Positions 7,805-31,111 of a stretch of 40,000 nucleotides of DNA are shown in pieces. Position 1 is the stretch's first letter; the number at the start of each line of letters is the position of its first letter. The position numbers and the translations under genes are program-made. The stretch lies in the NCBI GenBank assembly GCA_052400685.1, contig JBQTGJ010000020.1; one strand, written 5' to 3'. The DNA is from Geofilum sp. OHC36d9. Its GTDB lineage: Bacteria > Bacteroidota > Bacteroidia > Bacteroidales > Marinilabiliaceae. Below the pieces are notes generated by a model, which was not told the DNA's origin, ran no database searches, and saw only the letters and a program-made list of their open reading frames with translations.

Positions 7805-8216
7805 AATTTAGGTATACTATTTTTCACAAAAGGACAAAATGCACAACAAAATCAACAATTTATTTATTTAATGTTCAATCTGATATGCAATCCGCTTCTT
7901 TTCACTTGGCGGTAACGCCCCCATAACGCCAAAATCGTTTAAACCACTAAAAAAATATTGTATTTATCTTGTCTTTTGCCGGTAATTTCCGGAAAAACAA
8001 ACCCTGAATTTACTAATTCGCTGCTATTTACCAACTAAGTTGAACAAAAACAGCCCCCATACTAAGATGAGAGCCATGGTGTATTGAGAACAAATCTTCA
8101 AAAATAAACCTTCTCCGCTTGGGGAGAAGACTTAGTCCTTAGGGAAGAATCATACTGCCATCGGGGAGGATCGTGCGCCCCGAGTGTCACCAAGAGGTCG
8201 CCGTTGCACATTTTTG

Positions 8217-16881: not shown

Positions 16882-17491
16882 TATTATGAATTTTGCCCAT
16901 TTTAGGTATTATGTGAATAAGGAATTGTTGGTTTTTATATTCATCTTTCCCAGAATATTCCCTGATTCCTTCGGTACCACTACCAGAAATTTGAATTTCA
17001 CAATCTATCGCATTAAAGATTATACCATTTGATTTCCAAAAGCGATAAAGAGACAAAGCCCTTTCATAGCTAAGTTCGTAATTGCGTGAATAATTATCTT
17101 TCGATGCCATACCTTCAATTACAACAAGATACTTAATATCAAATTTCTCAAAATTCTGCTGATTTTTAAGCTCAGTTATTAAATTCGAAATAGAATTACC
17201 CACTTTAATTAAATATTTATAATATTTGGGGTTGATGTAAGAACTGCCACTCTGAAATTGAATTTGCTTATTTAATTTGAAGCGTTTGTATTCTGGTTGG
17301 TATTCAAAATACTCTTCTGGCAATTTTTGAACGGCAATATGTAATTCTTGAATTTTTACTAGTTGTTCCTTAATATCCTCGATGTTGTACTTTAAATACC
17401 CAATTGTAACGACAAATAGCACAAGCATCACAAAAAACAGACTTGTCATCAAATCAGAATAACTTATCCAAAAAATATTATCCTTTTTCAT
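16871..17491 (-). CDS. MotB/ZorB-like protein 2 (TM plug with conserved Asp plus OmpA-like C-domain)
   Basis: FWISYSDLMTSLFFVMLVLFVV (compare MotB [21 protein letters not shown]). C-terminal NYELSYERALSLYRFWKSNGI...ISGSGTEG is OmpA-like. TAATG overlap with the upstream gene. Confidence 0.7.
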   Translation of the reverse strand: MKKDNIFWISYSDLMTSLFFVMLVLFVVTIGYLKYNIEDIKEQLVKIQELHIAVQKLPEEYFEYQPEYKRFKLNKQIQFQSGSSYINPKYYKYLIKVGNSISNLITELKNQQNFEKFDIKYLVVIEGMASKDNYSRNYELSYERALSLYRFWKSNGIIFNAIDCEIQISGSGTEGIREYSGKDEYKNQQFLIHIIPKMGKIHNNEE

Positions 17492-18210
17492 TAATTCGAT
17501 CTATTTTGGACTTTCGGAATAATTTGAATAGAAAATCGTTTGTTATTTTCTTCTAAATTATCTCTGCATAGGCCATTAAAGCCACTACCACAAAGCATTA
17601 TTTCAGTATTGTATTTCCGCAGATCGATGTTGTTTTTGTTCCATAAATCATACACGGCTAATGCTCGCTCGAAGCTCTTTTTATAACCATATTTATTGTC
17701 AACACTATAAGATCTATCATAAGTATTTGCCATATTTCCTTCAATGACTAATAAATATGATAATTCAGGAGTTTTCATATATAGATCTTTCAGAAAATCC
17801 TCTATTTCATAGCCAATATTTATAGTAGTACTTACAAACTTTCTTTTTATAACCGACTTATTAGGTTCAAAAATTTCTTGTCCAAGTAGATCTTTAACTA
17901 GGTACTTTTTACAATTAGGAAGGTAAATAAACTTACCGCTTTCTTCTAGAGGTTTAAATTGTTCTTCAATTTTCAGTAATTTATCTTGTTGTTTTACTGT
18001 AATAATTAATTTTTCATTGGCGGTTTTAAGTTCTGTTATAAGTGTTTCTGTTTCCTGCTCTTTTTCTCTCAACTGCGTAATTAATTCTTCATTGTTAAAC
18101 ATTTGGTTTTTTAAATAACCTATTGTAACGACAAATAGCACAAGCATCACAAAAAACAGACTTGTCATCAAGTCAGAATAACTTATCCAAAAAATATTAT
18201 CCTTTTTCAT
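17491..18210 (-). CDS. MotB/ZorB-like protein 1 (TM plug, coiled-coil linker, OmpA-like C-domain)
   Basis: The N-terminal 34 aa are identical to the paralog. A coiled stretch follows (QLREKEQETETLITELKTANEKL), then KKSFERALAVYDLWNKNNI...LCGSGFNG. Confidence 0.7.
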   Translation of the reverse strand: MKKDNIFWISYSDLMTSLFFVMLVLFVVTIGYLKNQMFNNEELITQLREKEQETETLITELKTANEKLIITVKQQDKLLKIEEQFKPLEESGKFIYLPNCKKYLVKDLLGQEIFEPNKSVIKRKFVSTTINIGYEIEDFLKDLYMKTPELSYLLVIEGNMANTYDRSYSVDNKYGYKKSFERALAVYDLWNKNNIDLRKYNTEIMLCGSGFNGLCRDNLEENNKRFSIQIIPKVQNRSN

Positions 18211-18689
18211 TAATTCGACTTTAGTTCATAAATCCAGTATAAAAGAATTAGTCCAAGGTTAATTAGAATTAGTAAAAGGCCTAATAAAAAAAGGACAATT
18301 GAGGAAGGAGAAATGAAAAAGAAATAAATCAATGAAAAAATTACTAATTCGGTTATCAATTCAATTTTATTGCCAATTTGTTGTGAAAGCTGCAGGTAGC
18401 AGCAGATAGTGTACAATATAACCCATACTACAGCTATAATACTTAGTAAAATTGTACACATCTTTCCTATTACTTTTACAACAAGAGGTAATGCAACATC
18501 TGAATAAAATAATGAAAAAAGATTCGGGAGTTTAAAAAAGTCAAAGGAAGAACCACTTTCTTCAAATAAAGGATTAAAAACCGCCCCATACGTCATTAAT
18601 GAAAACCCAAGCAAAAGTATTGGGATCAAGGCAATAATTAACAAGGTTTTTTCCCAACCTTGTAATGTTTTGATAAGATTCAAACGCAT
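18210..18689 (-). CDS. Small polytopic membrane protein (about 4 TM)
   Basis: Hydrophobic segments LLIIALIPILLLGF, CTILLSIIAVVWVILYTICC, LVIFSLIYFFFI and LFLLGLLLILINLGLILLYW. Translationally coupled on both sides. Confidence 0.6.
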   Translation of the reverse strand: MRLNLIKTLQGWEKTLLIIALIPILLLGFSLMTYGAVFNPLFEESGSSFDFFKLPNLFSLFYSDVALPLVVKVIGKMCTILLSIIAVVWVILYTICCYLQLSQQIGNKIELITELVIFSLIYFFFISPSSIVLFLLGLLLILINLGLILLYWIYELKSN

Positions 18690-18690
18690 A

Positions 18691-20223
18691 TTAAAATATT
18701 TTCTTTATTACTTTAACAAGGCTAACAGAGCCATCTGACCCTTTAGAAATCACGTGTTTGGAGAAACTTCCATTTGTAGGTACTTTGCTGTTTCGTGACT
18801 GACGATTTCTTAAACCAGCCTCAATAGAACTCAATTTGTCCAACAACGATTGATTTTGCTGCATATTTTTAATGGAACTATTAATATCTTTCATCAGTTC
18901 CAAATTGTCAAGTTGGTTAAACTTTGGAATTGAATCAGAATAAGCATCTTTAAATGATTCAATATATTGAGAGGTAATATTATTCAGATTCCCTTCAATG
19001 TGTTTATAAATACTTTCCAGTTTTTCCTCGTGACTACCGGCACTTTTATACAGGTTACTGATCATTTCTTCGGTTCTGTTTTTTAAAGCATTAATAGATT
19101 CTTCAAAGTGCGATTCTACGATTCCAACAGATTTCAAGGCGGCATTTCCTGAATTTTCAATTTTATCAAAATGGGCAGAAAGAAATCTTGTTAATTGCCT
19201 TGATTCAACGAGAGTGTCATCAATACCGTTTATAACTTTATTAACATCTGATGTACGGTTGGCAAATTCCAGCAGTTGAGAAGTTATTCGCTCCATATTG
19301 GCTATGTAAGCAGAAAACTTGTTGAGAGATTCCATATTGTTTTCCAACTTCTCAAAGAGTTCTAAATTCCATTTTGAAACTTTTAGAACTTCCATATTGT
19401 CAACTTTTTCGATTACATCTTTTTGTAATTCAAGATTTTCACCTGTTTGATTCGCAGCTGTTAACACATTGTCCGAAATATTAGTTGCAACTCTCGCAAA
19501 CCTGTCTAAGCTTGCTTTTAAGCCAGAGACTCCTGTATCTTCGGCCTTTATCAACTCAGGAAGAAGCTTGGCTTGCATATAAGTTAACTGCTCATTTTTA
19601 TCTTTCTGCACAATGCGTCTGGCTTTTTTATAGGAAAAAGAAGAAAGATATGTTGTACAAGCTAACCCCGACAAACTACCGAGCATTGCAATTTTAACAC
19701 CACCGATTAAATCATTAACCCCTAAAGAAAATCCATCTCCATTTAATTCAGGCATTGAGAATAAACCGAAAATAATACCAATCATTGTTGCCGCAAGGCC
19801 TAAATAAAGAGGAAGTGTTACTGATTGCGATATCTCGTCGTCTTTAACAGCTATTTCTCTGTCAACAATATCTTTTATAATGCTAAAATTAACTGCAGCA
19901 CCATAATTATTAATGAGATAAGTATTTATTGCTTTCTTGATTTGAGAAATAACTTCATTTCTTCCTTCGGTATCAATCAAGGACAATTTTACGATGTCAT
20001 CATCTGCAATTTCAGAAAAGGATTCTTCATATTGAACATCGGTTGAATCAAAATCAACAGCCCCAATTTTTTCTTTCTCAACAAAACCAGTTCTTAGAAA
20101 TAGCTTAAATGAAAAGATGTTTTTTAATTTAGAGATATTCAAATGCACCTTGTAGGTGTGAAGTAATTGATATATAATAACTCCAACAATTATTGCTATT
20201 TCTATTTTATGCCAAAGATTCAT
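18691..20223 (-). CDS. MotA/ExbB/TolQ-family channel protein with long C-terminal helical tail (ZorA-like architecture)
   Basis: TM1 is IEIAIIVGVIIYQLL. A ~110-aa loop follows, then LPLYLGLAATMIGIIFGLFSM...GVKIAMLGSLSGLACTTYLSSF (compare ExbB/TolQ PxxGLxGTVxGIxxxF...GIxxALxxTxxGL). The remaining ~300 aa are E/K/L/N/S-rich and predicted helical. Confidence 0.6.
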   Translation of the reverse strand: MNLWHKIEIAIIVGVIIYQLLHTYKVHLNISKLKNIFSFKLFLRTGFVEKEKIGAVDFDSTDVQYEESFSEIADDDIVKLSLIDTEGRNEVISQIKKAINTYLINNYGAAVNFSIIKDIVDREIAVKDDEISQSVTLPLYLGLAATMIGIIFGLFSMPELNGDGFSLGVNDLIGGVKIAMLGSLSGLACTTYLSSFSYKKARRIVQKDKNEQLTYMQAKLLPELIKAEDTGVSGLKASLDRFARVATNISDNVLTAANQTGENLELQKDVIEKVDNMEVLKVSKWNLELFEKLENNMESLNKFSAYIANMERITSQLLEFANRTSDVNKVINGIDDTLVESRQLTRFLSAHFDKIENSGNAALKSVGIVESHFEESINALKNRTEEMISNLYKSAGSHEEKLESIYKHIEGNLNNITSQYIESFKDAYSDSIPKFNQLDNLELMKDINSSIKNMQQNQSLLDKLSSIEAGLRNRQSRNSKVPTNGSFSKHVISKGSDGSVSLVKVIKKIF

Positions 20224-20224
20224 A

Positions 20225-21601
20225 TTAGTAGAGTTTTATCTTAATTTTATTTTCAGTGTCAATCATCCAACGATCATTTAAACGAGTCACTTTGCCGCTA
20301 TGAATTAGTCCGATTTTTGTGGCAGTAGATGAATTTGTAATGTTTTCGATATCGCAAACAGGCTTTAAGTAGGATTCTAAGCGGTTAATTGCCCTTTGGT
20401 CTCTATCGCCCGACAAATAAAACAGTTCCCCTTTGGTTGAAGATTCTTTAAATTCAATCTTGAAATATTTTTTCCCATCATTTGAAATCTCACCATTTGA
20501 AATTAGAAAGCTGCCATCACTTTCGGGCATTGAAAAATAAATCTTTTTTATTTGTTTTGTTGGCTGGTCTAGAGCGCTTTCTGATAGGGCATTATATGTA
20601 TCTGCTTTACCCTCATCCTTCGAAATAAATTTTTGTTCAACCCTTTTTTTTAAATCAGCGTTTTCTTCCGAAAGTTCTTTCGTTTTCTTTTCTAAGGATG
20701 ATATTTTTTTTCGTAGATCGTCAATACCGCTACCTCTGTTGGTATTAGCTAATTGACATTCCTTTTTATACTTGCTTTTTTGTTTTTGTAAGCAAAATAC
20801 AACTCTTAAATATCCAAATAAGAATCGTTTATTATTTCCCGCTTGTGAATAATCATTGTATTTCCGTTCATCTTCTTCATTGACAATCGACTTAATCTTG
20901 TTTTTGGTAATTAAAAAAATAAAAAGCCCTCCAATCATAAGCCCTGTAATGAAAACACCTCCGTATAAAAAAATTGTATTACTAAGAATCTGATTTGTAT
21001 TTCTTTTTTGGGTTAATTTTGGTTGTAGGTCTTTTTTAGGTATTTTATCTTCGATCTTAACAGATTCCGATTTATTTTCAATTAATTTTTTTGCTTCTTG
21101 ATGAAATGCAGAAAGAGATTGATTATACTTAAGAACTATCTCCTTTGTTTTTTCGTTCCAATAGTCATGATTATTGTTGCGACCTGGAATTACAGTTACT
21201 AAATCATTACTACCTGGTTTTGTACATCTAAAAAAAGACTCATTCAAAGGTATTTTACTCTCAAAATTCTTTTTCAGAGGGACGAAAAGTTTCTTTCTGG
21301 TTCCACTCCAGTAATTCTCATTTAAGAACTTTGAAATTTGAGTGAAAGTTGGTAGTGTTTCTTTTAAATCAATATCTTGAATAAAAGCTTCGAAGTATTT
21401 GTCTTTACCAACTATTTCATTTTTTGCAGCTGATTCGCCCACAGTAGTGATATAATCTTGCATATATGCATAGGTCGCTTCAATTACACCTCTCTTAGCC
21501 CAATAATTATATGCTTCTGTTGAATCTTTGAACAGGCTTTGTGCAAATGAACCTTGCACAAAGCCTGTTAATATGATAAAAAATATTAGTCTTTTATTCA
21601 T
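20225..21601 (-). CDS. Bitopic membrane protein: signal peptide, ~190-aa exo-domain, TM, cytoplasmic coiled coil plus C-domain
   Basis: MNKRLIFFIILTGFVQGSFAQ; TM IFLYGGVFITGLMIGGLFIFLI; DDLRKKISSLEKKTKELSEENADLKKRVEQ. No recognisable enzymatic motif. Confidence 0.55.
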   Translation of the reverse strand: MNKRLIFFIILTGFVQGSFAQSLFKDSTEAYNYWAKRGVIEATYAYMQDYITTVGESAAKNEIVGKDKYFEAFIQDIDLKETLPTFTQISKFLNENYWSGTRKKLFVPLKKNFESKIPLNESFFRCTKPGSNDLVTVIPGRNNNHDYWNEKTKEIVLKYNQSLSAFHQEAKKLIENKSESVKIEDKIPKKDLQPKLTQKRNTNQILSNTIFLYGGVFITGLMIGGLFIFLITKNKIKSIVNEEDERKYNDYSQAGNNKRFLFGYLRVVFCLQKQKSKYKKECQLANTNRGSGIDDLRKKISSLEKKTKELSEENADLKKRVEQKFISKDEGKADTYNALSESALDQPTKQIKKIYFSMPESDGSFLISNGEISNDGKKYFKIEFKESSTKGELFYLSGDRDQRAINRLESYLKPVCDIENITNSSTATKIGLIHSGKVTRLNDRWMIDTENKIKIKLY

Positions 21602-24600
21602 CGTCCGTTTTCTTTTCAGCGAGTGCGTAAGACAATTTATTTAGTATTCCTATTAAAGGATAAAAGAACAAAGTTTCTTCTATTTTAGAGTCTGGCTTTT
21701 TGTAGTATGCTTGTATTCCCCTTACAAGAAAATCATTTATTCCTGATTCTCTTTCTTGTTGAAAAATTGAATAGGCATCAGTCTCTATAATGTATTTTGA
21801 CTCTATATTAATGGTTTGAATATACTCATCTAAGATTGAATAAAAATCTTTGATGGTTTCTTCAATTTGTAATTTGTGTGTGTCATTCAATTCTCCATAT
21901 TTTGGAATGTTTTGGACATCCACTTCTCTATCAAACACTTTTCCCCAGCTATCATCCTGAGTACCACCAATCCAGAATTTAATTGGTGATTCTTTTATGC
22001 TGTCGTCAAGATTAGCTTTTAATGCTCCTTTACAAGTAACTTCTTTAGGAATAGATGACAGTTTTATTTGTAGTTTTTCTCTTGATTTTTCGCTGTAAAC
22101 ACTTTCAAAAATGTATTGAAACAAATTTGAAATATTTTTCAAATTTGAGGATGCATCAATAATTGATGCTGATTTAGACGCTGTACCACTTAATAAGACA
22201 TGTTTAGGAATACCAATACCTGATTTTTTAAGCAGGTTCGCAGAATAGTAAGCGATCGCTCCATAAAACACGAATATTGAAAGTTTCAACCTATTATTCT
22301 TTTGCAGTAACCTTGTATAGCTAAATTCATTTGACTCATCTTTTTCCAGTGCAAAAAGGAAACTACTAAAATCGGAGGAGTTTTTTCTGGTGTTTAATAT
22401 ATTGTCTAAAATTCCTTTTAATTGTCCAAATTCATTTTTATCAGTGCTTTTAATCGCATCTAAAGCTGCATCTTTAAATGTCTTAACAAAGCCATTTCTA
22501 TCCGAGTTGTTCTTAAATTCATCGGAAGGATACCCATCTCCAAAAATAGCATTGCCGGCAAACTTAAAAGAAGAGATCAGTTTTGCTTTTTTATCATCTT
22601 CATCAAACACCGCAATATCAGATGAACCACCACCAATGTCAATTGATAAGCTTAAACCAGCTACAGAGGATTTGTAATATAAATAAGGAGCAATACTCTC
22701 AGGTATGCTTTTTATTCCGGTATCCGAATTTTGTTTAAACGCCCTTTGATAAACATTCTTCCAGAGTCTGGAAAACACTTCCAGTTCTCCTTCATCCATA
22801 CTTACCGGATAAAACCAGGTAATTGTTGAATTTGCAGGGCTACCACCTAATTGAAGTGTTTTGTAAAATGCAATTGTCGTTAAAAATTCTAAATACGATT
22901 CAACTTTCTTTTCATCAATTGTATTTGCATAATTGCTCCATTTTAACTGAGTGTTTAGTTCAAGGTAGTTTGGCACACTTCGTTTTTCAAGTAGCAAATA
23001 ATTATTAACCTGTCTGATAATATCTACTTTGTTATTAAAATCAACGTCTTTATTATGAACAAGGGCAGACCTTAGAGGAAACCTTAATCCGTTACCATTT
23101 GAAAACACAAATGGTAAAATTTCTTGCTCAAAAGTATTCTCATTTTCAATATACACCGGGTCAATACCACTTGCGTTTCTGTTAATTAGTGATTGCCAAA
23201 GAGGTTTAGTTGGTGTGTTGTCAAGAGAAATTGAATCATTATCTCCAAGTTTGTATTCAATATGGGTATTTGTTGTACCGAAATCAATCGCAAAATTTAC
23301 TTTGGATGTTCCTTTGGCTGTATTCATTATTGGTATAACAAACCCAGTTTTTGAGTTTACAGAAATACCAAATGCCTCAGGCTGATTTTCTACTTTAAAA
23401 TATTTACTGACTAATTCACCTCCACCTCCGGGATTTCTCGTAATTGCAGAATTAGTCAATTGTTGCTCACCATTTTTAAATGTGGTTAAACTTATTTTAT
23501 TTGATTCATCTAAACTGTAATCAAGTAAGCCGATGATATGTGTTAATTCGAAATCATTTGATTTTAAAAATGGAAAAATAGCTAAATGCACATCTAATTT
23601 CTCAATATTTTTGTCAGCTGTAGAATATTGCCTCTTAAATATAATTTCGCCCCCTTTAACCGGTATTTTAAGCTCAGCATCCACATTTCCACCAGCGCGT
23701 TCTTTTAGGCTTAAATATTGATTCGCTTTTTCTGCCTTAAAATATTTAAAAAATGTTGATGATAAAGGCAAAAGGTGTTTTTTTGAACCGCACGTAATAA
23801 ACTTTGAATCGTCAATTGGGTATGGCAATTCAATAATTTTATCTTCAAAAAAATTGCCAATTGTCAACCAATAATACGGGTCATTTTGTATCGGTAATTT
23901 TGATTTATTTGGTACATCTGTGTTTTTATAGACAATCTGTGTTTTTTCATCCCACAAGATACCTTTAGTTGTATATGTCCATTTCTTTGAAAATGGATAT
24001 TGGGGTAAAATAAGAGGCTTAACTTCATTGTACAAAAAATCAGACTTGATAACAAAATCACTTTCAGTAGAGATGCTCCCTGTATCAGTTTCCTGAACGC
24101 CAAGTTTTATATTCAACACTTCACAAATATCATTTTCATTCTCTAATACTGTGCAAGCTTTGTATTCTGTCAGATGGCTAGCTTCTATATCTGTAATTTT
24201 CCGATTTAAGTCTCCACTCAAATGTTCTTTTACCTTTTCCAGATACTCGTAAACTTCGGGGAAATAATGAGCAAATTTAGGCTGTTTAGCTAAGGTGTAA
24301 AAGTATTCAATAAAAGACGATTCTCTTTCTGACAAAGGCGCATACTCGTTATCAAAAAGTTTGTCTTGCCCTATGCGAATATCCAACTTACTTGTTACTT
24401 TTCTTACGTCAGGAGAAGCGAAAAACAAGGTGGCAGGAGAAGTGCCGCCAATAATGTTGTTCGTTTCTTTATTCAGAATAAAATACAATCTATTTGTTTT
24501 CTCAAAATTGTATAATACTTCATTACCTATTTCGTCCTCTTCTACACTATCCTGATTCCAAAATAATTGAAGCGTATCAACGTATTTTTTGTGTATTTTG

Positions 24601-24944
24601 TTACCATTCTCTTTTAACTCTTTAAATCTATCTTTAGGACTCCAGGCAATAATGCGAATTTTACTGCCGAATTTTGGAGAAGTAAAGAAAAGTTGAGCGA
24701 CATCAAGCGCATCAGACACCAATTTATGGTGGGCTGTATTGCCTTTTATTTTATTCTCTGAAACCCACTTAAACGCAGATTTTACCAAATCAATTGTTGC
24801 AAAGGGTGTCGGAATAGATGTTGCAACGTCTTTACCTTCTGTTTTTATTGTCTTCAGTTGGTCAGAAGTAATTATCCCACTTTTAAACCACCCTGTTTCT
24901 TCTGTGATACCTCCTTCGTGGAGTCTGAATATTTTTTTAGCCAT
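21594..24944 (-). CDS. Large protein (1116 aa) with actin/Hsp70-like (ASKHA) ATPase domain in its C-terminal half
   Basis: Phosphate-1 NFAIDFGTTNTHIEY (nt 23265-23285 encode DFGTTNT). Phosphate-2 LSIDIGGGSSDIAVF (nt 22617-22640). Adenosine-like HVLLSGTASKS. The ~540-aa N-terminal region has no motif I recognise. Confidence 0.65.
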   Translation of the reverse strand: MAKKIFRLHEGGITEETGWFKSGIITSDQLKTIKTEGKDVATSIPTPFATIDLVKSAFKWVSENKIKGNTAHHKLVSDALDVAQLFFTSPKFGSKIRIIAWSPKDRFKELKENGNKIHKKYVDTLQLFWNQDSVEEDEIGNEVLYNFEKTNRLYFILNKETNNIIGGTSPATLFFASPDVRKVTSKLDIRIGQDKLFDNEYAPLSERESSFIEYFYTLAKQPKFAHYFPEVYEYLEKVKEHLSGDLNRKITDIEASHLTEYKACTVLENENDICEVLNIKLGVQETDTGSISTESDFVIKSDFLYNEVKPLILPQYPFSKKWTYTTKGILWDEKTQIVYKNTDVPNKSKLPIQNDPYYWLTIGNFFEDKIIELPYPIDDSKFITCGSKKHLLPLSSTFFKYFKAEKANQYLSLKERAGGNVDAELKIPVKGGEIIFKRQYSTADKNIEKLDVHLAIFPFLKSNDFELTHIIGLLDYSLDESNKISLTTFKNGEQQLTNSAITRNPGGGGELVSKYFKVENQPEAFGISVNSKTGFVIPIMNTAKGTSKVNFAIDFGTTNTHIEYKLGDNDSISLDNTPTKPLWQSLINRNASGIDPVYIENENTFEQEILPFVFSNGNGLRFPLRSALVHNKDVDFNNKVDIIRQVNNYLLLEKRSVPNYLELNTQLKWSNYANTIDEKKVESYLEFLTTIAFYKTLQLGGSPANSTITWFYPVSMDEGELEVFSRLWKNVYQRAFKQNSDTGIKSIPESIAPYLYYKSSVAGLSLSIDIGGGSSDIAVFDEDDKKAKLISSFKFAGNAIFGDGYPSDEFKNNSDRNGFVKTFKDAALDAIKSTDKNEFGQLKGILDNILNTRKNSSDFSSFLFALEKDESNEFSYTRLLQKNNRLKLSIFVFYGAIAYYSANLLKKSGIGIPKHVLLSGTASKSASIIDASSNLKNISNLFQYIFESVYSEKSREKLQIKLSSIPKEVTCKGALKANLDDSIKESPIKFWIGGTQDDSWGKVFDREVDVQNIPKYGELNDTHKLQIEETIKDFYSILDEYIQTINIESKYIIETDAYSIFQQERESGINDFLVRGIQAYYKKPDSKIEETLFFYPLIGILNKLSYALAEKKTDDE

Positions 24945-24945
24945 T

Positions 24946-26439
24946 TTAAACTTGTTTTAAAAGGTTGTTTTTACTTAATACATTTTCAGTTGATTTACCG
25001 AAAACCTTAATAAGTGTTGTGTGTCTTTTCTCAGGAGTGGATCTAAAGCCTATTTCAGTAATCAACTTACAGTTTTCAACATCAATAGATTTAAAACTTT
25101 TATTTCCTTTTCCTTCATCACCTTTTACTAAGTTCAAAGCATCATCCCAGTTTACTTTATTATATGGACTAAAAGCGGGTTTATTATCTTCCATTTCATT
25201 TAGCCATTCAATAAAATGCTTATTAAAAGCATCAATCTGAATTTTATATTCCGAACTATTAAAATATTGTTTGTCTAAAAATGAATTCTCGGACTTTTTA
25301 ACCAGCTTAATATTGCTTTTTGTCCACCTTGAAACATTAATAGCTTTTGGCAAACCAATATTCAGGTATTCGGAGAACAGTTTATATTTGGTCAATGGTT
25401 TAGCAATATTTTTTTGATTATTTAGGTTCAAATCCCCAAAAACGATTGATTCTGTGTCATTTTCAATTCCAAACTCTTTTACCTGAGTTTCATTACTGGT
25501 CTTATCAATATTTTCACAAAAGTCAAAAATTGCTAATGCACCTGCCATTTCTAAAAAGTGAGCATTATTCTTTTGCTCCTTTCCTCCAACAGCATATTCA
25601 AAGTGTTTAGCATTTCCTCTATTTCCAATAAAATAAAGAGAATTAATTTTATTCTGCTTAATAATTGTTCTGTTGTAATAATCGATGGCAATTTTGGCCT
25701 TATCCTCAAATGAATCGGAGTTAATTTCATCTTTTTTGTTTAGTGCAAAATAAGGTAGATAGGTTATGCCTCCAATTGGCGCTTCCTTAATTTTTGCACT
25801 GTTAGGCAAATCGGAATTTCCTCTTAAATTTTTTAATAGTAAAGGGAATCCTGCCGCACCTGTACCACCAAATATTGAGTTAATAATAAAAACGGCATCA
25901 TCGTCATTAAATGTTTGTCCAAATCGTTTAAAGTCATCCGAATCGGTAAATTGGTTTAAAACAATGGCGCCCATATTGGGATTTCCTTTAAAGCCAACAT
26001 TCAAATTGGAGTTCAAATTTTTGTCAGAATATAAAAGCCTGGTAAAATTTTTATCGTCTTTTGAATTTTTGTAATCATCATCAAGTGTATTAAAACCAAT
26101 GTACTGTCCAAATGTACTTTGATCAACATCATTTAAACTGAACTGAAAATAATCTGAATTAACTACCGATGATTTATTTGCTAACTCATTAACAGTTTTT
26201 ATTTCCTGAGAAAAGAAATCATCGGGTTGGTCGACTTGGTTTCTTATTTGTTGATATAACTTTAAAATATCTTTGGTTCTGTTCAGATCACCATTGCTTG
26301 TATCAGGGTCAATAATAATTGGAATAACCGTATCAAAATCATTTTTAAATTTGCATCCAGAAGCTAATAACATTGTTAATGCCTTTAAAACTCGAGAACC
26401 TGTCCCTCCAATTCCGAATATGTATATTTTTTTTGCCAT
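24946..26439 (-). CDS. Divergent tubulin/FtsZ-superfamily GTPase-like protein
   Basis: N-terminal KKIYIFGIGGTGSRVLKAL (nt 26395-26415 encode GIGGTGS; compare FtsZ GVGGGGxNA). IIIDPDTSNGDL (compare NTD). T4-like FIINSIFGGTGAAGFPLLL (nt 25849-25872; compare GGGTGTGAAP). No T7 NxDxxD loop found by eye. Confidence 0.6.
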   Translation of the reverse strand: MAKKIYIFGIGGTGSRVLKALTMLLASGCKFKNDFDTVIPIIIDPDTSNGDLNRTKDILKLYQQIRNQVDQPDDFFSQEIKTVNELANKSSVVNSDYFQFSLNDVDQSTFGQYIGFNTLDDDYKNSKDDKNFTRLLYSDKNLNSNLNVGFKGNPNMGAIVLNQFTDSDDFKRFGQTFNDDDAVFIINSIFGGTGAAGFPLLLKNLRGNSDLPNSAKIKEAPIGGITYLPYFALNKKDEINSDSFEDKAKIAIDYYNRTIIKQNKINSLYFIGNRGNAKHFEYAVGGKEQKNNAHFLEMAGALAIFDFCENIDKTSNETQVKEFGIENDTESIVFGDLNLNNQKNIAKPLTKYKLFSEYLNIGLPKAINVSRWTKSNIKLVKKSENSFLDKQYFNSSEYKIQIDAFNKHFIEWLNEMEDNKPAFSPYNKVNWDDALNLVKGDEGKGNKSFKSIDVENCKLITEIGFRSTPEKRHTTLIKVFGKSTENVLSKNNLLKQV

Positions 26440-26449
26440 TGTGTTTTAT

Positions 26450-26899
26450 TTAAAAAGGTAAGTGAATTTGGATTTTGCTGAATTGCTTTAATATTAAGCT
26501 ATAAATAAAACCAACAACAATGCCGAGCAAACCATTGAATAAAGCATATTCAAATGGTAATGTTTTGGCAAATTCTTCATAACCTGATTCAGGATATGCT
26601 AATGCATCAATCAGATCCTGGTTGTTTGATAAGAATATTTCATTATTCGAAATACCCCAAGAAATGCCTCCAGTTAACAGGGATGCAATAATTAACCATA
26701 AAAACCAATGCCGGAATTTCCCATAAGGAGATTTCCATAAATAATAGAAAGCAGCGAACAATATTAATGGAACGAGTACAAAAGTCAAGCCTAGTAGAGT
26801 ATAGCCCCCGGAATCATATAAAGTGTTAAAAATCAACCCAAATTGAGGGTCGTACAGGTTAAACAAAGACTCATAAATAGTTGCGAAAAGGTCATTCAT
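26450..26899 (-). CDS. Small membrane protein (about 3 TM)
   Basis: Hydrophobic segments GYTLLGLTFVLVPLILFAAFYYLW, WFLWLIIASLLTGGISW and LFNGLLGIVVGFIYSLIL. Confidence 0.55.
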   Translation of the reverse strand: MNDLFATIYESLFNLYDPQFGLIFNTLYDSGGYTLLGLTFVLVPLILFAAFYYLWKSPYGKFRHWFLWLIIASLLTGGISWGISNNEIFLSNNQDLIDALAYPESGYEEFAKTLPFEYALFNGLLGIVVGFIYSLILKQFSKIQIHLPF

Positions 26900-26905
26900 A
26901 ATACT

Positions 26906-28198
26906 TTATTTAATAAGTTCAAACTTAAAGGTGACAATGTTAGATTCTTGGTTTTTATATTGATAAGCTTCACTAATTGCATTAATTAGGAACTTAAAAC
27001 CGAAAGTATGAGAGGTGTCTCCGACAATATCACTTTCATCATCACTGTTTGTTTCCACAATCCAATTTGGAATCGTGTTTTTTAAAGAAATTTCGAGTTG
27101 ACATAATGGACTTCTCTCTGTCCCAACCGTGATTAGATGAGTCGGGGTGAAGTTTAAACCAAAAAGTTTTATATCACCTATTTCAGAAACAGCTTTAATT
27201 GAGAAATTTGAATTATCACATATATAATTATCAACTGATGTGAGATAGGAATCTGAAAATGGCAACGCAGAATAATCTGTTGCTAATGTAAAATGGAAAC
27301 CTTGTCCCTTTCTATCTGATTTTACGCTAACCAATTTATTTCTATCTCTTTTGTCAAATCTAAAATCACCGACTTTGTTATGTGCAACGGCCTGATACGG
27401 AACCTCCAATTCACTGTTTTTTAAGAATCTAGCGACATCAGAAAAGCCTTTAAGGCTTTTAATATAATCATCGTTGAAATATTCATTTAACAATTCGGTT
27501 TCACCAAAAATCCAAACATAAAAAGGTCTGTCTTGCGATAATATTTTGACACCACCTGTAACAGGGAAATATTTTCCATCAAAATGAGATTTCAACTTTA
27601 TGATAATTGTTTGTAAATCACCTGTATTTAATCTTTCAATAAAACGGCTTCTTGTTTCACGTCCTTCTGTTGATAGCGCATTCATTGGCGCTTGAGGTTT
27701 ACCAATATCGTAAATAGCATCTGAAATTAGAATTGAAACAGTATCGTTTTTTGCGCGAGATAGAGCTAATTGAAACATTAAGTTGAGATTACTTTTAGTA
27801 ACGTCACCACAATTAAAACCTGTCAAATTTAATTTGTCTTTCAGGTAAGCCGGATTATTTCCAATATTTGTAATTTTTATTTTTTGCCCACCATTAACAA
27901 AATAAAATTCCCGTTTTGTATTTTCTTCCGCAAAACGAGGTTTTTCTGCTAATTCTGAAACAACGTCAACATATTCAGTAAAACCATTAACGTATCCAAA
28001 CATACTTCCTGAATTTTCTAAATAAAATACTGCTTTCTCCACATTCCTTTCCATAGAAGCGTTGGACGCATTTTTAACAAAACCTATTTGGTTTTCTGTT
28101 TGTTTTTTGGTTTCAGAATTACTTAATCTTTCACTTCTATTTTTACAGCTTGAAGTAAAAATCAAAAGAATAAGAATCAGGTAAAAGTAGAATCTCAT
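26906..28198 (-). CDS. Lipoprotein with von Willebrand A-like domain (degenerate MIDAS)
   Basis: Lipobox LLIFTSSC. AVFYLENSGSMFGY (compare DxSGS with E for D), GDVTKSNLNLMFQLAL (MIDAS Thr position), VSILISDAIYD (compare TDG). The first gene of the operon. Confidence 0.45.
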   Translation of the reverse strand: MRFYFYLILILLIFTSSCKNRSERLSNSETKKQTENQIGFVKNASNASMERNVEKAVFYLENSGSMFGYVNGFTEYVDVVSELAEKPRFAEENTKREFYFVNGGQKIKITNIGNNPAYLKDKLNLTGFNCGDVTKSNLNLMFQLALSRAKNDTVSILISDAIYDIGKPQAPMNALSTEGRETRSRFIERLNTGDLQTIIIKLKSHFDGKYFPVTGGVKILSQDRPFYVWIFGETELLNEYFNDDYIKSLKGFSDVARFLKNSELEVPYQAVAHNKVGDFRFDKRDRNKLVSVKSDRKGQGFHFTLATDYSALPFSDSYLTSVDNYICDNSNFSIKAVSEIGDIKLFGLNFTPTHLITVGTERSPLCQLEISLKNTIPNWIVETNSDDESDIVGDTSHTFGFKFLINAISEAYQYKNQESNIVTFKFELIK

Positions 28199-28849: not shown

Positions 28850-29395
28850 ATCAGTTGCGAGTTGAAATCGGGCTGATCTTGCTTTGAGGCTGGGGCCCTT
28901 TCAGGGCGATAAAACAACGGGTGATCATACCACAAGGCGATGCCCTGGGCTAACGCTACAAGGCTTTCAGCCTTGATGGGGGCTTGCAAGGAAAGGACAA
29001 CCTCTGCGTTTGCTTACTTTTAAATCGGATATCTACGGGTGGCAACTCACTTTTGCCGGACTTCACAGGCCTTGAATTTGAGCTTTATATTTTAAACACT
29101 TGGTTGATGGACAGACTCTATTTAGTGTTTGTCTATAAAGTCAACTTCTGCGTTATGCTTGTCATAAAAACAGTCATTTACGAAAAGTAAACTCCTTGAT
29201 TTTTATGACTTCACAGGCCTTGAATTTGAGCTTTATATTTTAAACACTTGGTTGATGGACAGGCTCTATTTACATGAGCGGCCTTTTCAATGCGAAATTT
29301 CTGATTCGGGATGGGATTCCAGGGCGTTGCCGTTGGGCTGAAGTTATTTGCACTTTAAGTGCGGTGAGTGGCAAAAGTATGATTTTACGAATGTA
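28850..29395 (+). repeat. Mosaic repeat cluster X+M1+M1+M2 (copy R, right flank of the AT-rich operon)
   Basis: 28888-28978 matches 1364-1455 (X). 29029-29125 and 29207-29392 match 15638-15853. M1 is tandemly duplicated (the GACTTCACAGGCCTTGAATTTGAGCTTTATATTTTAAACACTTGGTTGATGGACAG block occurs twice). Confidence 0.75.
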
Positions 29396-30395
29396 AAAAG
29401 AGTCTGCTTCTAAAGTGGAGCTTCTGCGTTGAACTGACTTTTTTGTGATATCGGATTTTATTTTCTTCAATTACAATTGTGACGGTATTACAATGGCTTG
29501 GATACGTCACCGTAAAAGCTTGCAAGTCGATCAAATGAATGTGAGCCTGCTTGTTGTGGTAGAAACCACTGCATTCAATTATTCCTAAAGGCGAATAGCG
29601 CGTTACTTTAAGCAGCGACTTAACCGTTTCGATATGAAACCAGGAACCGGCTCCTTCACCTGCCAGCCATTGTGCATTTTCAGGTATGGAGGAATGTTTT
29701 TCGGGCTGTGGTAATGTCGATTTCAAAAACTCTCTATGAGGTTTTAGAGACGGACAAACGGGTTGTATACCACTCAGGTTTTCAATAACCGTTTGATTTC
29801 CGAAGGCATGTACATTGTTCATCGGCGTTGGTGTGAGCGGGACCATGAAATTCAACCGGAAAAGCTGTTTAAAATTGAGTTTCCCTGCCCTCAACACCGA
29901 ATTTACAAAACGGGAACAGTTGCTCCCCCTGTATCGGAAAGGGCCATAAGGAATAGGACTTTTAGCCTGTAATTGCAACGCTTTGGCATAAGCCTTTTTA
30001 AAATTGATTGGGGCATACGAGGCATGTAATTTCCCTTCGCCATGGCATGCCGGGTTTTGTTGAAGTTCAATCAATATCTCGTTGAAATTCAACAGCATTT
30101 TGCCATTCGTGGATATCCATGGTAAAGTGTGTACGGTTAAATCGGGGTCGGTAATTGCCCCACGTGCCCTTCCGTGCTGAAAGGGTGAATGATACCGCCC
30201 AAAATCGAAATAAAAACATTTTTTATGTTGACTGTCGACCAATACCAGAGCGGCATGTCCGGCCTGGTAATAATTATTTTTGCTGATACCTATACCTGAA
30301 GTGATCCATTCGTACCAGCCCCCAGCCTGTTTACAGTATGTTTCGGGCCAGGCAATGGCGATGGCAAATCCTGTTTGTTTATTATTCGTGGTCAT
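29385..30395 (-). CDS. Conserved hypothetical protein (336 aa)
   Basis: Long ORF with an ATGA overlap to the NRDE gene. Its last ~15 codons and its stop lie inside the repeat, so the native C-terminus may differ. Confidence 0.65.
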   Translation of the reverse strand: MTTNNKQTGFAIAIAWPETYCKQAGGWYEWITSGIGISKNNYYQAGHAALVLVDSQHKKCFYFDFGRYHSPFQHGRARGAITDPDLTVHTLPWISTNGKMLLNFNEILIELQQNPACHGEGKLHASYAPINFKKAYAKALQLQAKSPIPYGPFRYRGSNCSRFVNSVLRAGKLNFKQLFRLNFMVPLTPTPMNNVHAFGNQTVIENLSGIQPVCPSLKPHREFLKSTLPQPEKHSSIPENAQWLAGEGAGSWFHIETVKSLLKVTRYSPLGIIECSGFYHNKQAHIHLIDLQAFTVTYPSHCNTVTIVIEENKIRYHKKVSSTQKLHFRSRLFLHS

Positions 30396-31111
30396 AGCTG
30401 AATCGTATGGTTGGTGTTTTTGATTAAATCGTAATAACTCATTTCCAACTTACTGCCTTCATGAATTATTTGCGTGGTGCTAACTGTTTTTAATTCCCCC
30501 TCGCGCATCATGATCACATTAACCGTGCTATCGTTGGTGTGTTTACCGGAATGAAACTGAAGCAAACCAGAAGCCGTGGGGTGCATTTTGCTCTCTTTCA
30601 GAAACTGATTGAACCAAACTTTGCGCTCCTTTCGGTTGGCAGCGGAATACAATGTTACCGACGACCAAATGTAAGAGTGCCTGGTGTCAAGTTGCCTATT
30701 GTGTTTGTCATTCCCATCCCAAATCAATTCGCTGAAGGAGGTCATTTCATTGCCATCAAAATCGATAGTCAACAAGGTGAATGGTTCGGTATGTGCAAGC
30801 GCTTCAGCAGTGAGAAACTGATCGGGATTTAACCCGGACCCGGCGGCATCAATTAATACTTTGCCCCTGCTGTGGGTGTGAAATGCTTGTTTGGTATGAG
30901 GTACGAAAGCGCCGTTGAGCAAACAAACCACACGTCCTTTATTGCTCATGGCAATCCACGAACCGCCGGCCACCGCATCTTTGGGATAGCAAAGAATGAC
31001 ATCGTCCCGGCGGTATTTGTGAGGGATAATGGTTTCACGAAAAGCCTTCTCGTCGCGGTTCGAGGTAAGAACAAACCCCTGGGGTTGCGGTATGTATGTT
31101 ACTGTGCACAT
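30392..31111 (-). CDS. NRDE-family protein
   Basis: MCTVTYIPQPQGFVLTSNRDEK... with the eponymous NRDE motif and an N-terminal Cys2. Confidence 0.85.
   Translation of the reverse strand: MCTVTYIPQPQGFVLTSNRDEKAFRETIIPHKYRRDDVILCYPKDAVAGGSWIAMSNKGRVVCLLNGAFVPHTKQAFHTHSRGKVLIDAAGSGLNPDQFLTAEALAHTEPFTLLTIDFDGNEMTSFSELIWDGNDKHNRQLDTRHSYIWSSVTLYSAANRKERKVWFNQFLKESKMHPTASGLLQFHSGKHTNDSTVNVIMMREGELKTVSTTQIIHEGSKLEMSYYDLIKNTNHTIQL

Follow-up and report, generated by a model that had tools for sequence, protein, structure and literature searches.

The tubulin-like protein g3 of Geofilum sp. OHC36d9 is a very divergent member of the tubulin/FtsZ superfamily that keeps the whole nucleotide-binding face, from T1 to T6/H7, lacks both the T7 loop with helix H8 and the FtsZ-type C-terminal sheet domain, and carries a helical domain in their place. 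Its gene is the founding member of an obligate pair; the C-terminal half of the partner (g4) is predicted to be an ASKHA-fold ATPase. The two belong to a ten-gene operon (g1–g10) on the minus strand of a 40,000-nt window of contig JBQTGJ010000020.1 (GCA_052400685.1); this window is the whole stretch of DNA analyzed, and all positions refer to it. In FtsZ and tubulin filaments, T7 completes the GTPase site of the neighboring subunit, and to our knowledge every well-studied protein of the superfamily hydrolyzes GTP through a T7 inserted into the pocket of the next subunit. Here, a large, strongly conserved family has kept the GTP pocket while losing T7 and the C-terminal domain, and its genes are tied to that of an HSP70/actin-fold ATPase, which poses a testable question: Can the tubulin fold serve as a partner-activated switch or as part of a heteropolymer?

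The g3 gene (24946..26439, minus strand) encodes 497 aa from an ATG start, with a tubulin/FtsZ-superfamily GTPase domain followed by the helical C-terminal domain. The sequence-only reading of this window had reported the same reading frame, with a G-box near the N-terminus and T4-like motifs in an order and spacing resembling FtsZ, and these claims were borne out by the profile and structure comparisons below. Residues 3–21 read KKIYIFGIGGTGSRVLKAL, residues 41–52 IIIDPDTSNGDL, and residues 187–205 NSIFGGTGAAGFPLLLKNL. The T1 loop (G-box) is GIGGTGSRV at residues 9–17 (26389..26415, minus strand), with G11, G12, T13, G14, and R16 invariant in alignments A2 and A7; the T4 signature SIFGGTGAAGFP at residues 188–199 (25843..25878, minus strand) is invariant in the same two alignments, and its GGTGAAG (191–197) pairs with GGGTG(T/S)G of FtsZ and CetZ in both hhalign and HMMER. 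A T3-like loop, VGFKGNPNMG at residues 148–157 (25969..25998, minus strand; G149, F150, G152, P154, and G157 invariant), was paired by hhalign with LGAGANPEVG of Escherichia coli FtsZ; the earlier reading had passed over this loop (GFKGNPNMG, 149–157). A T2-like DPD and the T5 loop LPYF are also kept, and ~80 residues are inserted between H2/S3 and T3 (residues 69–148). The core helix H7 was predicted by DSSP of the AF2 model at residues 295–313 (25501..25557, minus strand). G285, Q289, N291, and H294 before this helix and E297 inside it are invariant, and from the order of the elements we infer that they mark the T6/H7 base-contact region.

In the Pfam and AlphaFold comparisons that the sequence-only reading had suggested, Tubulin (PF00091) matched residues 4–208 with E=1.1e-5 over profile positions 1–137 of 190, below the family cut-off (26.3 vs. 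33 bits), and no FtsZ_C (PF12327) match was found; phmmer against the PDB gave E=0.12. The AF2 model (pLDDT 85.8, pTM 0.90) retrieved FtsZ, CetZ, tubulin, and TubZ exclusively at Foldseek PDB ranks 1–39 (probability 0.92–1.00), with low TM-scores of 0.25–0.31 over the query. The sequence-only reading had named best matches to non-tubulin folds as the result that would overturn it; the earliest such match appeared at rank 40, with a probability of 0.54. FtsZ, CetZ, TubZ, and tubulin, the best structural matches of g3, have the same GTPase-domain fold and the same succession of T1–T6; in g3, five loops stand in the correct order and spacing.

The g3 family comprises 1,765 clusters at 50% identity (E<=1e-3), at least 4,025 clusters at 90% identity match g3, and relatives are encoded in at least 584 species genomes, mostly of the Bacteroidota. 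They are scattered over Bacteroidota, Chlorobiota, Ignavibacteriota, Leptospiraceae, Campylobacterota, and Acidobacteriota, and cultured hosts include Parabacteroides distasonis, Bacteroides vicugnae, Algoriphagus, Spirosoma, and Flavobacterium species. Among 30 sequences of 34–71% identity (A2) the g3 motifs are invariant, and the T1–T6/H7 residues are unchanged down to 22% identity, cyanobacterial relatives included (A7). Since they are invariant across so large and diverse a family, the motifs are not due to chance.

A canonical T7 is missing, as the sequence-only reading had claimed. The motif NxDxxD is absent from g3 outside T5: A scan of the whole protein for N.D..[DE] returned the single match NSDSFE at residue 240. 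This is the string INSDSFED (residues 239–246) that the same reading had singled out as the only similar one; it lies at the T5/H5 boundary in the AF2 model, with an Asp that the family does not conserve. The strand after H7 (319–322; AF2 DSSP) begins after a linker of only 5 residues, so there is no space for T7 and H8. In canonical FtsZ, CetZ, TubZ, and tubulin, T7 reads NxDxx(D/E) and is followed by the H8-S7...S10 domain, whereas in g3 helices take the place of that domain (residues 339–490; 24970..25425, minus strand). DSSP of the AF2 model places them at residues 339–366, 396–418, 450–460, and 469–490; W412 within this domain is invariant (A7) and E415 near-invariant.

The gene g4 (21594..24944, minus strand) encodes a protein of 1,116 aa, the N-terminal ~545 residues of which form alpha/beta and beta-rich domains. 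A g4-type gene lies directly downstream of the g3-type gene in every locus where this was scored (74/74). At the present locus the junction reads TAA-A-ATG, with 1 nt between the genes, and the two are translationally coupled. The aligned proteins P0121 and P0318 are g3–g4 fusions, and P0122, P0321, P0369, P0385, and P0389 are probably fusions as well, going by their lengths of 1,534–1,652 aa; fusion of g3- and g4-type genes arose several times independently. The pair is also found on cyanobacterial plasmids. Adjacency, the 1-nt gap, and recurrent fusion thus strongly support g4 as the partner of g3. The sequence-only reading had named the adjacent actin-like protein as one candidate for a partner that activates the GTPase, and the partnership stood on genetic grounds; the likeness did not quite, the predicted ASKHA-fold domain being nearer to the HSP70 nucleotide-binding domain (NBD) than to actin.

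This predicted ATPase domain spans approximately residues 545–1110 (21615..23312, minus strand) and was recognized by Foldseek and by motifs: AIDFGTTNTHIEY (552–564), SIDIGGGSSDIA (767–778), and LLSGTASK (917–924) are invariant in alignment A3, the phosphate-1 (DxGxT) and phosphate-2 (DxGGGxxD) motifs being present as DFGTTN and DIGGGSSD. Together with the adenosine motif and the duplicated RNase-H-like fold, these are the marks of the ASKHA superfamily, to which the domain conforms. Foldseek placed HSP70/DnaK NBDs first (E 2e-7, TM 0.48, target-normalized), and MreB, BeeR, and actin ranked below them. By sequence profile alone g4 had no significant match to the ASKHA families; Pfam gave a weak FtsA match (E=0.086). 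The N-terminus of g4 carries a conserved RLH..GWF..TSIPSPFARIDLV segment. The AF2 model of g4 has a pLDDT of 80.8, with residues 1–45 below 50.

Eight further genes make up the operon, whose ZorAB-like stator, lipoprotein, and protease genes had no place in the earlier reading. The first gene, g1 (26906..28198, minus strand), encodes a 430-aa lipoprotein (lipobox ...SSC, Cys18), a homolog of which is found upstream of the tubulin-like gene in 74 of 75 loci. Its pattern ENSxS ... ILISD, with E61, S63, S65, and D160 conserved (alignment A5), resembles a vWA MIDAS; neither Pfam nor a PDB profile search gave a vWA match, and we therefore speak of a MIDAS-like motif only. The 149-aa multi-pass membrane protein g2 (26450..26899, minus strand), an ORF with no family match, is detectable between g1 and g3 in close loci and in some distant ones, and cyanobacterial plasmids have an ORF of 156–169 aa at this position. 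Downstream of g4, g5 (20225..21601, minus strand) is a weakly conserved bitopic membrane protein of 458 aa: A signal peptide and a periplasmic N-terminal part lead into a single TM helix, and beyond it come a cytoplasmic coiled coil and a C-terminal domain that is rich in beta structure. Its Pfam matches are coiled-coil-type noise only; in Spirosoma-type and cyanobacterial loci g4 is likewise followed by proteins of g5-like layout.

The stator-like subunits follow. The 510-aa g6 (18691..20223, minus strand) is a proton-channel subunit of the MotA/ExbB superfamily with a coiled-coil tail of ~280 residues, an architecture like that of ZorA. Its best non-coiled-coil PDB matches with profile A4 were ZorA chains (8vvi and 8vvn, E 1.6–2.1e-4; 8qyk and 8qyh, E 0.01), which are weak and cover the TM region 141–202 only (~60 residues), and its tail matched coiled-coil proteins; 8VVN and 8VVI are ZorAB structures. 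Pfam MotA_ExbB matched 6 of 27 g6 members, and no PADLOC ZorA model matched g6. Next to it lies g7 (18210..18689, minus strand), a 159-aa polytopic membrane protein that occurs in close relatives only. Two MotB/ZorB-like subunits, g8 (239 aa; 17491..18210, minus strand) and g9 (206 aa; 16871..17491, minus strand), are identical over their first 34 residues and both have the TM Asp, which in g8 is conserved within SYSDLMT. PADLOC ZorB1 matched g8 with E=1.8e-12 (residues 2–85) and g9 with E=1.5e-16, in both cases partially and far below the NCBIfam equivalog cut-offs; g9 has an OmpA-type peptidoglycan-binding domain (Pfam OmpA, E=1.8e-5), and g8 no recognizable OmpA domain. These ZorB-like genes were the only ones in the operon that PADLOC recognized. 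A g6-type gene is encoded in 46 of 57 loci and a MotB/OmpA-like gene in 43 of 57; the MotA/MotB pair was undetected in 11/57 (~1/5) and on the cyanobacterial plasmids, so that the system can evidently do without a stator. Most genomes nevertheless have in this operon a bitopic membrane protein, a ZorA-like subunit, and one or two subunits of the ZorB/MotB type, often joined by a protease. The last gene, g10 (16105..16881, minus strand), encodes a 258-aa trypsin-like (HtrA-type) serine protease (Pfam Trypsin_2, E=1.5e-24). This type of protease occurs in 18 of 57 loci, is fused to SNase in L004, and is a variable accessory or effector-like component.

The operon is horizontally mobile. It forms an island of 31–33% GC between flanks of 38–50% GC, and an IS21 element and a group II intron lie close by; in Psychroflexus an integrase adjoins the module, in cyanobacteria the pair is carried on plasmids, and one MAG encodes two copies of the g3-type gene. 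Adjacent genes vary among loci and include trypsin, trypsin-SNase, retropepsin-like and LAS-type peptidases, and EEP nucleases. Among the closest flanking ORFs, known defense genes (AbiE, Cas6/Cmr1, PDC-S02, mad2) were found near the module in ~5 of ~55 loci.

The operon logic parallels that of the vWA–FtsZl1–membrane protein–MotB operons described by Makarova and Koonin (2010; PMC2875224), who could not identify T6-H7/T7 in FtsZl1. Both operons encode membrane proteins and one of the MotB/OmpA type; to the upstream vWA protein of the FtsZl1 operons corresponds g1, with its MIDAS-like motif. Both tubulin-like proteins have a highly divergent GTPase domain, in which T1–T5 can be recognized but T6-H7/T7 and the FtsZ C-terminal domain cannot, and a helical region after it; T6/H7 of g3 is placed by position. 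FtsZl1 measures ~900–1,100 aa, with an extended coiled coil and a helical C-terminal domain, whereas g3 has 497 aa, no coiled-coil match, and the helical domain only. Against the FtsZl1/Tubulin_2 profile (PF13809), g3 scored 19.3 bits (cut-off 27) over residues 9–50 only; its cyanobacterial relatives, named tubulin-like in RefSeq, exceeded the threshold, L089 with 40.8 bits. Alignment of A2 with the canonical FtsZl1 Npun_AF098 by hhalign covered 23 columns (T1 only) with a probability of 5%. No member of the g3 family is in the 2010 FtsZl1 list, and an HSP70-fold partner of the g4 type is not among the families associated with FtsZl1 there (PMC2875224).

With Zorya the operon shares MotB-like subunits, with the TM Asp and peptidoglycan binding through an OmpA-type domain, and soluble cytoplasmic partners encoded alongside; g6, a MotA-superfamily protein whose cytoplasmic coiled coil is long, resembles ZorA in layout and weakly in its TM sequence. 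These partners differ: Zorya has ZorC/ZorD, ZorE, or ZorF/ZorG, none of which PADLOC found in the g3 operon, where a tubulin-like GTPase and an HSP70-fold ATPase are encoded instead, and unlike Zorya some of the g3-type loci do without a stator. The operon would extend the range of ZorAB-type stators to new cytoplasmic partners. Predicted conflict systems also use tubulin and HSP70 modules (Kaur et al. 2020; PMC7159879): The DO-GTPase/GAP1-N2 systems resemble the g3 operon in having NTP-dependent assembly components of the tubulin superfamily or HSP70 family, TM components, and peptidases. They also include vWA proteins; g1 has a MIDAS-like motif only. They are, however, defined by TRAFAC-clade DO-GTPases and GAP1, whereas none of the ten proteins here has a Walker A motif or a P-loop GTPase family match; and tubulin and HSP70 are alternative themes in those systems (Firmicutes, Actinobacteria) but an obligate pair here, mainly in Bacteroidota. 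FtsZ–FtsA likewise places a tubulin-superfamily gene beside an ASKHA-fold gene. The gene order of g3–g4 is the reverse, however, and the pair lies outside the dcw cluster in a mobile accessory module; g4, three times as large as FtsA, has HSP70-like motifs and fold rank and a 545-residue N-terminal extension.

Taking these data together, we lean, with modest confidence, toward g3 being a GTP-binding switch that works with its ASKHA partner in a trans-envelope and most likely conflict-type system. Going by its loops, g3 would bind GTP and would not complete the active site of its neighbor in the way FtsZ and tubulin do; because of this inability it would be no self-activating cytomotive filament but a GTP-dependent switch, or an assembly module, within a heteromeric complex that includes g4. 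This complex would form the cytoplasmic end of a trans-envelope apparatus that the ion-driven stator energizes or triggers. By analogy with Zorya, and in view of its mobile, patchy, and effector-variable context, this apparatus would most likely be an anti-phage or anti-invader system, in which a perturbation of the envelope may be relayed to NTP-dependent assembly and so lead to the deployment of proteases or nucleases. We know of few defense systems tested in Bacteroidota, and a role in defense would add a cytoskeleton-fold mechanism to the immunity of this group. A bolder version, which we put forward only tentatively, is that the operon represents an immune or conflict machine of a class not recognized before, which would span the envelope, be coupled to the ion-motive force, and resemble Zorya except in its cytoplasmic partners; in it, g3–g4 would be an obligate heteromeric NTPase linking a ZorAB-type motor to protease or nuclease effectors. 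The two proteins might then form a mixed filament, or the ASKHA partner might supply the activating element that g3 lacks, possibly through the conserved, unstructured RLH..GWF segment at the N-terminus of g4. In that case the two great cytoskeletal folds would, for the first time in bacteria, be functionally coupled within a single complex.

The same parts could also make up a housekeeping-type machine for envelope or membrane remodeling, serving vesicle formation, envelope repair, surface transport, or gliding-like movement. The Myxococcus Agl-Glt machinery combines a TolQR-like motor with MreB, a GTPase, and a vWA lipoprotein, and offers a loose analogy. All non-enzymatic components of the operon are membrane or periplasmic proteins. 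The core sequences are highly conserved, members assigned to different bacterial orders sharing 66–90% identity, which is unusual for an immune sensor, and PADLOC defense matches are sparse in the operon and its flanks; both observations tell against a conflict system. The shared operon logic of FtsZl1 systems (vWA, tubulin-like, membrane protein, MotB) points in the same direction, and the compact g3 module revives the membrane remodeling proposed in 2010 for FtsZl1-vWA-OmpA operons (PMC2875224). A housekeeping role nevertheless seems to us doubtful, as it accords poorly with the patchy cross-phylum spread, the low-GC island, the plasmids, IS elements, and integrases, and the paralogous copies in one genome; moreover, the variable terminal proteases and nucleases, including the trypsin-SNase fusion, resemble effectors, and the stator subunits are closest to ZorA/ZorB of a defense system.

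It is unlikely, in our view, that g3 is instead a self-polymerizing, FtsZ/TubZ-like cytomotive filament with g4 as an FtsA-like tether or regulator, the role of T7 being taken by another residue of the C-terminal domain or by E322. E322 (in KEFG; 25474..25476, minus strand) is the candidate for a minimal T7 substitute: It ends the strand 319–322, 9 residues past H7, and is the only post-H7 acid invariant in the Bacteroidota-type family (alignments A1 and A2), where G324 is also invariant or near-invariant. It follows F295 by 27 residues, the same spacing as that of F182 and D209 in FtsZ. Because E322 is invariant at about the T7-equivalent distance, a cryptic minimal T7 at this residue is possible. 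The perfectly conserved nucleotide face is what an active GTPase would show, and FtsZ–FtsA, together with the weak Pfam FtsA match of g4, provides a precedent for an actin-fold partner. However, the cyanobacterial relatives L089 and L091 have replaced E322 while retaining all other loops (alignment A7), so that no post-H7 acid is conserved once they are taken into the alignment. The short H7–strand linker leaves no room for T7 and H8, the FtsZ-type C-terminal domain that helices replace provides much of the longitudinal interface, and the Foldseek TM-scores are low.

Could the tubulin-like domain be a degenerate pseudo-GTPase, a dead scaffold serving as structural platform for g4? Conflict systems often contain inactive NTPase domains (PMC7159879), and both T7 and the canonical C-terminal domain are gone; yet the phosphate- and base-contacting loops T1, T3, T4, T5, and T6/H7 are invariant down to 22% identity, which argues for selection on nucleotide binding and makes such a scaffold very improbable. 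That g3 is a non-tubulin, Rossmann-like fold with chance glycine-rich loops, as sequence scores short of the family cut-offs might suggest, is scarcely credible given that the 39 best structural matches are all of the tubulin superfamily, that the loops keep their order and spacing, and that weak Pfam matches recur in diverse members of the family, to Tubulin in 28 of 30 and to Tubulin_2 in 26 of 30.

The open reading frame named in the sequence-only reading exists (24946-26439, minus strand, 497 residues); it is the third gene, g3, of a ten-gene operon (g1-g10), and the strings quoted from its product lie at residues 3-21, 41-52, 187-205 and 239-246. That reading had missed a further T3-like loop, GFKGNPNMG at residues 149-157, which aligns with GAGANPEVG of FtsZ. 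These motifs are not due to chance, given the large related family in the databases and in species genomes. A word-indexed search retrieved at least 4,025 clusters at 90% identity, the best 120 of which are 66-90% identical and all named 'hypothetical', and HMMER, run exhaustively against 1.84 billion representatives, retrieved 1,765 clusters at 50% identity with E<=1e-3, of which 468 reach E<=1e-30. When one genome per species was scanned, 584 genomes or more proved to encode relatives, the majority from Bacteroidota, with others from Chlorobiota, Melioribacteraceae, Balneolaceae, Leptospiraceae, Sulfuricurvum and Pyrinomonadaceae; several cultured species carry one, among them Parabacteroides distasonis, Algoriphagus faecimaris and a Spirosoma species. 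No homologue was found in the phage genomes searched, and an origin from a PhuZ/TubZ-like phage protein is therefore rejected. One Spirosoma MAG (isolate FBaNitRs1_30, loci L044 and L062) encodes two divergent copies, which share 44% and 38% identity with the window protein and each precede a giant g4-type partner (see below), indicating that the module can occur as paralogous systems within a genome. Near-complete operons, 72-77% identical to that of Geofilum, were also observed in a Candidatus Gracilibacteria MAG (L010) and a Hyphomicrobiales MAG (L011); their presence in CPR and alphaproteobacterial bins reflects either very recent transfer or mis-binned Bacteroidota contigs.

Sequence comparisons are consistent with g3 belonging to the tubulin/FtsZ superfamily, yet remain under the family thresholds. 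Pfam Tubulin matches residues 4-208 (E=1.1e-5; 26.3 bits, cut-off 33) and Tubulin_2 the N-terminus only (E=7e-4); among 30 members with 34-71% identity, Tubulin is matched by 28 and Tubulin_2 by 26, none strongly. HMMER comparison of PDB sequences with the g3 protein and its family profile gave marginal CetZ matches over T3-T4 only, and the same loops were the sole part aligned by hhalign between the family profile and E. coli FtsZ, an alignment which is uninformative on H7 or T7. A confident AlphaFold2 model made from the diverse alignment (pLDDT 85.8, pTM 0.90) has as its best 39 Foldseek matches in the PDB exclusively FtsZ, CetZ, tubulin or TubZ (best E-value 2.7e-4, probabilities 0.92-1.00), with the first other fold at rank 40 (probability 0.54). 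Non-tubulin Rossmann folds, which the sequence-only reading had named as the outcome that would speak against a tubulin-like identity, are thus absent from ranks 1-39. Given the modest TM-scores of 0.25-0.31 over the query and 0.40-0.44 over FtsZ and CetZ, the likeness to these proteins is limited to the GTPase domain.

Within the model, S1 (3-10), T1 and H1 (11-26) are followed by S2 (35-43), a T2-like DPD and H2 (50-68), and then by an insertion of approximately 80 residues (69-148). T3 (148-157), H3, S4 (182-188), T4 and H4 (192-207) come next, then S5 (222-227), T5 (LPYF), H5 (242-260) and S6 (267-271), and a long T6 region leads into H7 (295-313). Beyond a short strand at 319-322 the remainder is dominated by helices (339-366, 396-418, 450-460 and 469-490). 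The residues invariant in the diverse alignment are G11, G12, T13, G14, R16 and D44 in the N-terminal part; G149, F150, G152, P154, G157, S188, I189, G191-G194, G197, P199, P229 and Y230 from T3 to T5; and G285, Q289, N291, A293 and E297 in the T6/H7 region. Most of these are kept in cyanobacterial relatives with an identity of only 22-23%, and the invariance of the loops is what selection on nucleotide binding would be expected to produce. It should be noted that the C-terminal helices (family-profile residues 357-479) gave marginal, non-significant matches to F-BAR (PACSIN) proteins (E 1.2-1.8), which we dismiss as probably noise from helical composition (E>1); a membrane-binding role for g3 of this type would suit the operon context.

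The protein thus has a tubulin fold with a conserved GTP pocket, and the sequence-only reading was also right that it lacks T7, the NxDxxD/E synergy loop. The only match to NxDxx(D/E) in the whole protein is NSDSFE at residue 240, which lies at T5/H5 and has an Asp that varies among relatives. Only five residues separate H7 from the next strand (319-322), and no FtsZ_C-type domain was found with Pfam or in the AlphaFold2 model. With such a linker and a helical remainder, the protein lacks both a T7 motif and the space for T7 and H8. As to mechanism, the principal alternative is that g3 forms a canonical filament in which E322 (KEFG) would serve as a cryptic T7. This residue is invariant within the Bacteroidota-type family, and its distance from the start of H7 is about that of the T7 aspartates of FtsZ; however, it is replaced in cyanobacterial relatives that retain all other loops, so that it is no catalytic element common to the whole family.

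The second element of the module is g4 (1,116 aa, 21594-24944, minus strand), which begins one base past the g3 stop codon (TAA-A-ATG). A g4 homologue lies downstream of g3 in all 74 loci with sufficient downstream sequence, and the two also occur as single polypeptides: alignment of P0121 (1,558 aa) and P0318 (1,658 aa) shows a tubulin-like part, a short linker and an entire g4-type protein, and five further clusters are candidate fusions by their length of 1,534-1,652 aa (P0122, P0321, P0369, P0385 and P0389). Some of these clusters might be artefacts of frameshifts or of assembly, errors that a gap of 1 nt between the two genes would make easy. No significant match to g4 was found in Pfam, NCBIfam or PDB sequences. 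The motifs AIDFGTTNTHIEY, SIDIGGGSSDIA and LLSGTASK, all invariant in the family, read like the phosphate-1, phosphate-2 and adenosine motifs of HSP70, and the AlphaFold2 model (pLDDT 80.8) matches best the nucleotide-binding domains of HSP70/DnaK (E 2e-7), with MreB, BeeR and actin ranked below. The 'actin-like' neighbour of the sequence-only reading thus holds at superfamily level, whereas the motifs and the ranking of folds make 'HSP70-like ASKHA' the more exact label. The partner of g3 is an obligate, sometimes fused, ASKHA ATPase, and the core of that reading, a tubulin-like protein without T7 and with its partner next door, is correct. The first approximately 545 residues of g4 comprise domains without family assignment. 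Few stretches of g4 are as well conserved, even in distant homologues, as its extreme N-terminus (RLH..GWF..TSIPSPFARIDLV), which comes directly after the tubulin-like C-terminus in the fusion proteins; residues 1-45 have a pLDDT below 50 despite this conservation, and we note only as a lead that this segment may bind, and fold on, its partner.

The ten operon genes, all on the minus strand, run from 28198 down to 16105 (12.1 kb). Neighbouring genes are separated or overlap by no more than 11 bases, and the set forms an island of 31-33% GC between flanks of 38-50%. Besides g3 and g4, the operon encodes a lipoprotein with a conserved ENSxS...ILISD pattern (g1, 430 aa), membrane proteins of 149 aa (g2) and 159 aa (g7), a bitopic membrane protein (g5, 458 aa), a MotA/ExbB-superfamily channel subunit with a coiled-coil tail of approximately 280 residues (g6, 510 aa), two MotB/ZorB-like proteins (g8, 239 aa, and g9, 206 aa, the latter with an OmpA domain) and a trypsin-like protease (g10, 258 aa). 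The likeness of g1 to vWA proteins is kept solely as a resemblance of motifs, as Pfam (26 members) and PDB profile searches gave no support for it. Outside coiled-coil proteins, all PDB profile matches of g6 are ZorA (8VVI and 8VVN, E~2e-4; 8QYK and 8QYH, E~0.01), and Pfam MotA_ExbB is reached by 6 of the 27 members of its family. PADLOC scores g8 and g9 as ZorB (1e-12 and 1e-16). These two are tandem paralogues (16871-18210, minus strand) with identical first 34 residues (MKKDNIFWISYSDLMTSLFFVMLVLFVVTIGYLK), including the transmembrane Asp, and 106 identities in the first 120 nt; their C-terminal parts are unrelated. In most other loci there is just one MotB-like gene. NCBIfam gave no specific match to the operon proteins. 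Taken together, the genes form an envelope-spanning set with a ZorAB-like stator.

Among the species genomes, a g1 homologue precedes g3 in 74 of 75 loci, and MotA-like, MotB/OmpA-like and trypsin-like genes are found in 46, 43 and 18 of 57 loci, respectively. In a Spirosoma/Cytophagales subset the stator is missing, and the genes after g4 encode a g5-like protein and a protease of retropepsin-like type; a LAS-type peptidase is encoded at a Sulfuricurvum locus. The terminal protease of Psychroflexus sp. CAK57W (L004, 18832-20025) combines trypsin and staphylococcal nuclease (SNase) domains in a single protein of 397 aa, and the module in this strain has a phage-type integrase 7 kb upstream. 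The core, comprising a small TM protein, a tubulin-like protein of 503-511 aa and a protein of approximately 1,100 aa with the HSP70-type motif DLGGGTSDISIW, is found in distant versions on cyanobacterial plasmids (L089, Gloeothece verrucosa PCC 7822 plasmid Cy782204, 8505-16788; L091, Synechococcus sp. NIES-970 plasmid1, 7017-13847). The Gloeothece tubulin-like protein scores above the Pfam Tubulin_2 threshold, and RefSeq names it, with a misspelling, 'tubulin-like doman-containing protein'.

Among known systems, the FtsZl1 operon, which in cyanobacteria encodes vWA, FtsZl1 (~1,085 aa), a membrane protein B7 (~524 aa) and a COG1360 MotB (Makarova and Koonin 2010, PMC2875224), follows the same logic as the window operon. 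In FtsZl1, T1-T5 are recognisable, T6-H7/T7 and the C-terminal domain are not identifiable, and polymerisation by a novel mechanism or none at all was suggested (PMC2875224). However, g3 aligns with the canonical FtsZl1 Npun_AF098 over T1 only and is therefore not filed as FtsZl1; it also has half the length, lacks the coiled coil and falls under the PF13809 cut-off. Neither a g3-type protein nor an HSP70-fold partner is present in the lists of that study. In its Supplement 5 (for example Ava_1847-1850, Cyan8802_4287-4290 and MAE_58760-58800), the unassigned 'membrane-associated protein B7' of ~524-549 aa directly precedes the COG1360 MotB gene, and by size and position may be an unrecognised g6-like MotA/ZorA subunit. 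The stator architecture is common to Zorya and the window operon, in which the soluble partners that define Zorya were not found. In Firmicutes and Actinobacteria, tubulin and HSP70 modules have been assigned to DO-GTPase/GAP1 conflict systems (Kaur et al. 2020, PMC7159879), whose P-loop GTPase has no counterpart here; no P-loop protein was detected in the operon, and membership is therefore rejected. A full-text literature search found no description of the combined tubulin-like, HSP70-fold and ZorAB-like module. The g3 family forms a large new branch of the T7-less tubulin-like proteins, hitherto uncharacterised, with a ZorAB-like stator and an obligate HSP70-fold partner that had not been described before; the system belongs to a kind already predicted in silico and is not a categorically new entity.

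We propose that g3 would act as a GTP-dependent switch or assembly module in a heteromer with g4, which would sit at the cytoplasmic end of a trans-envelope apparatus. For the module as a whole we favour a conflict (defence-type) role, for five reasons. The low-GC island adjoins an IS21-family element (IstA-like transposase and IstB, E=2.4e-53; 12805-15129, plus strand) and the reverse transcriptase/maturase of a group II intron (RVT_1 4.5e-39 and GIIM; 10402-11652, minus strand); an integrase adjoins the module in Psychroflexus; cyanobacteria carry it on plasmids; it has a scattered distribution over several phyla, with two copies in one MAG; and the proteases and nucleases at its end vary, EEP nucleases and the trypsin-SNase fusion among them. 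As to function, the principal alternative is membrane remodelling, the reading Makarova and Koonin gave to FtsZl1 operons. Several observations weigh against a conflict role: the core is conserved to an unusual degree, some lineages dispense with the stator, and PADLOC, run on all ten operon proteins, recognises as system genes only the ZorB-like ones, its other result being a trypsin similarity to RT-protease models. A defence-island test found only a few defence genes among 149 flanking ORFs, which is suggestive and not decisive; that such genes are only occasional in the flanks weighs against a conflict role.

At the opposite flank of the operon, 29385-31111 (minus strand) encodes a protein that combines a TseH-like type VI secretion effector domain (4.7e-42) with a C-terminal DUF6695 domain and may represent another conflict-related locus; the next gene encodes a TANGO2-family protein.
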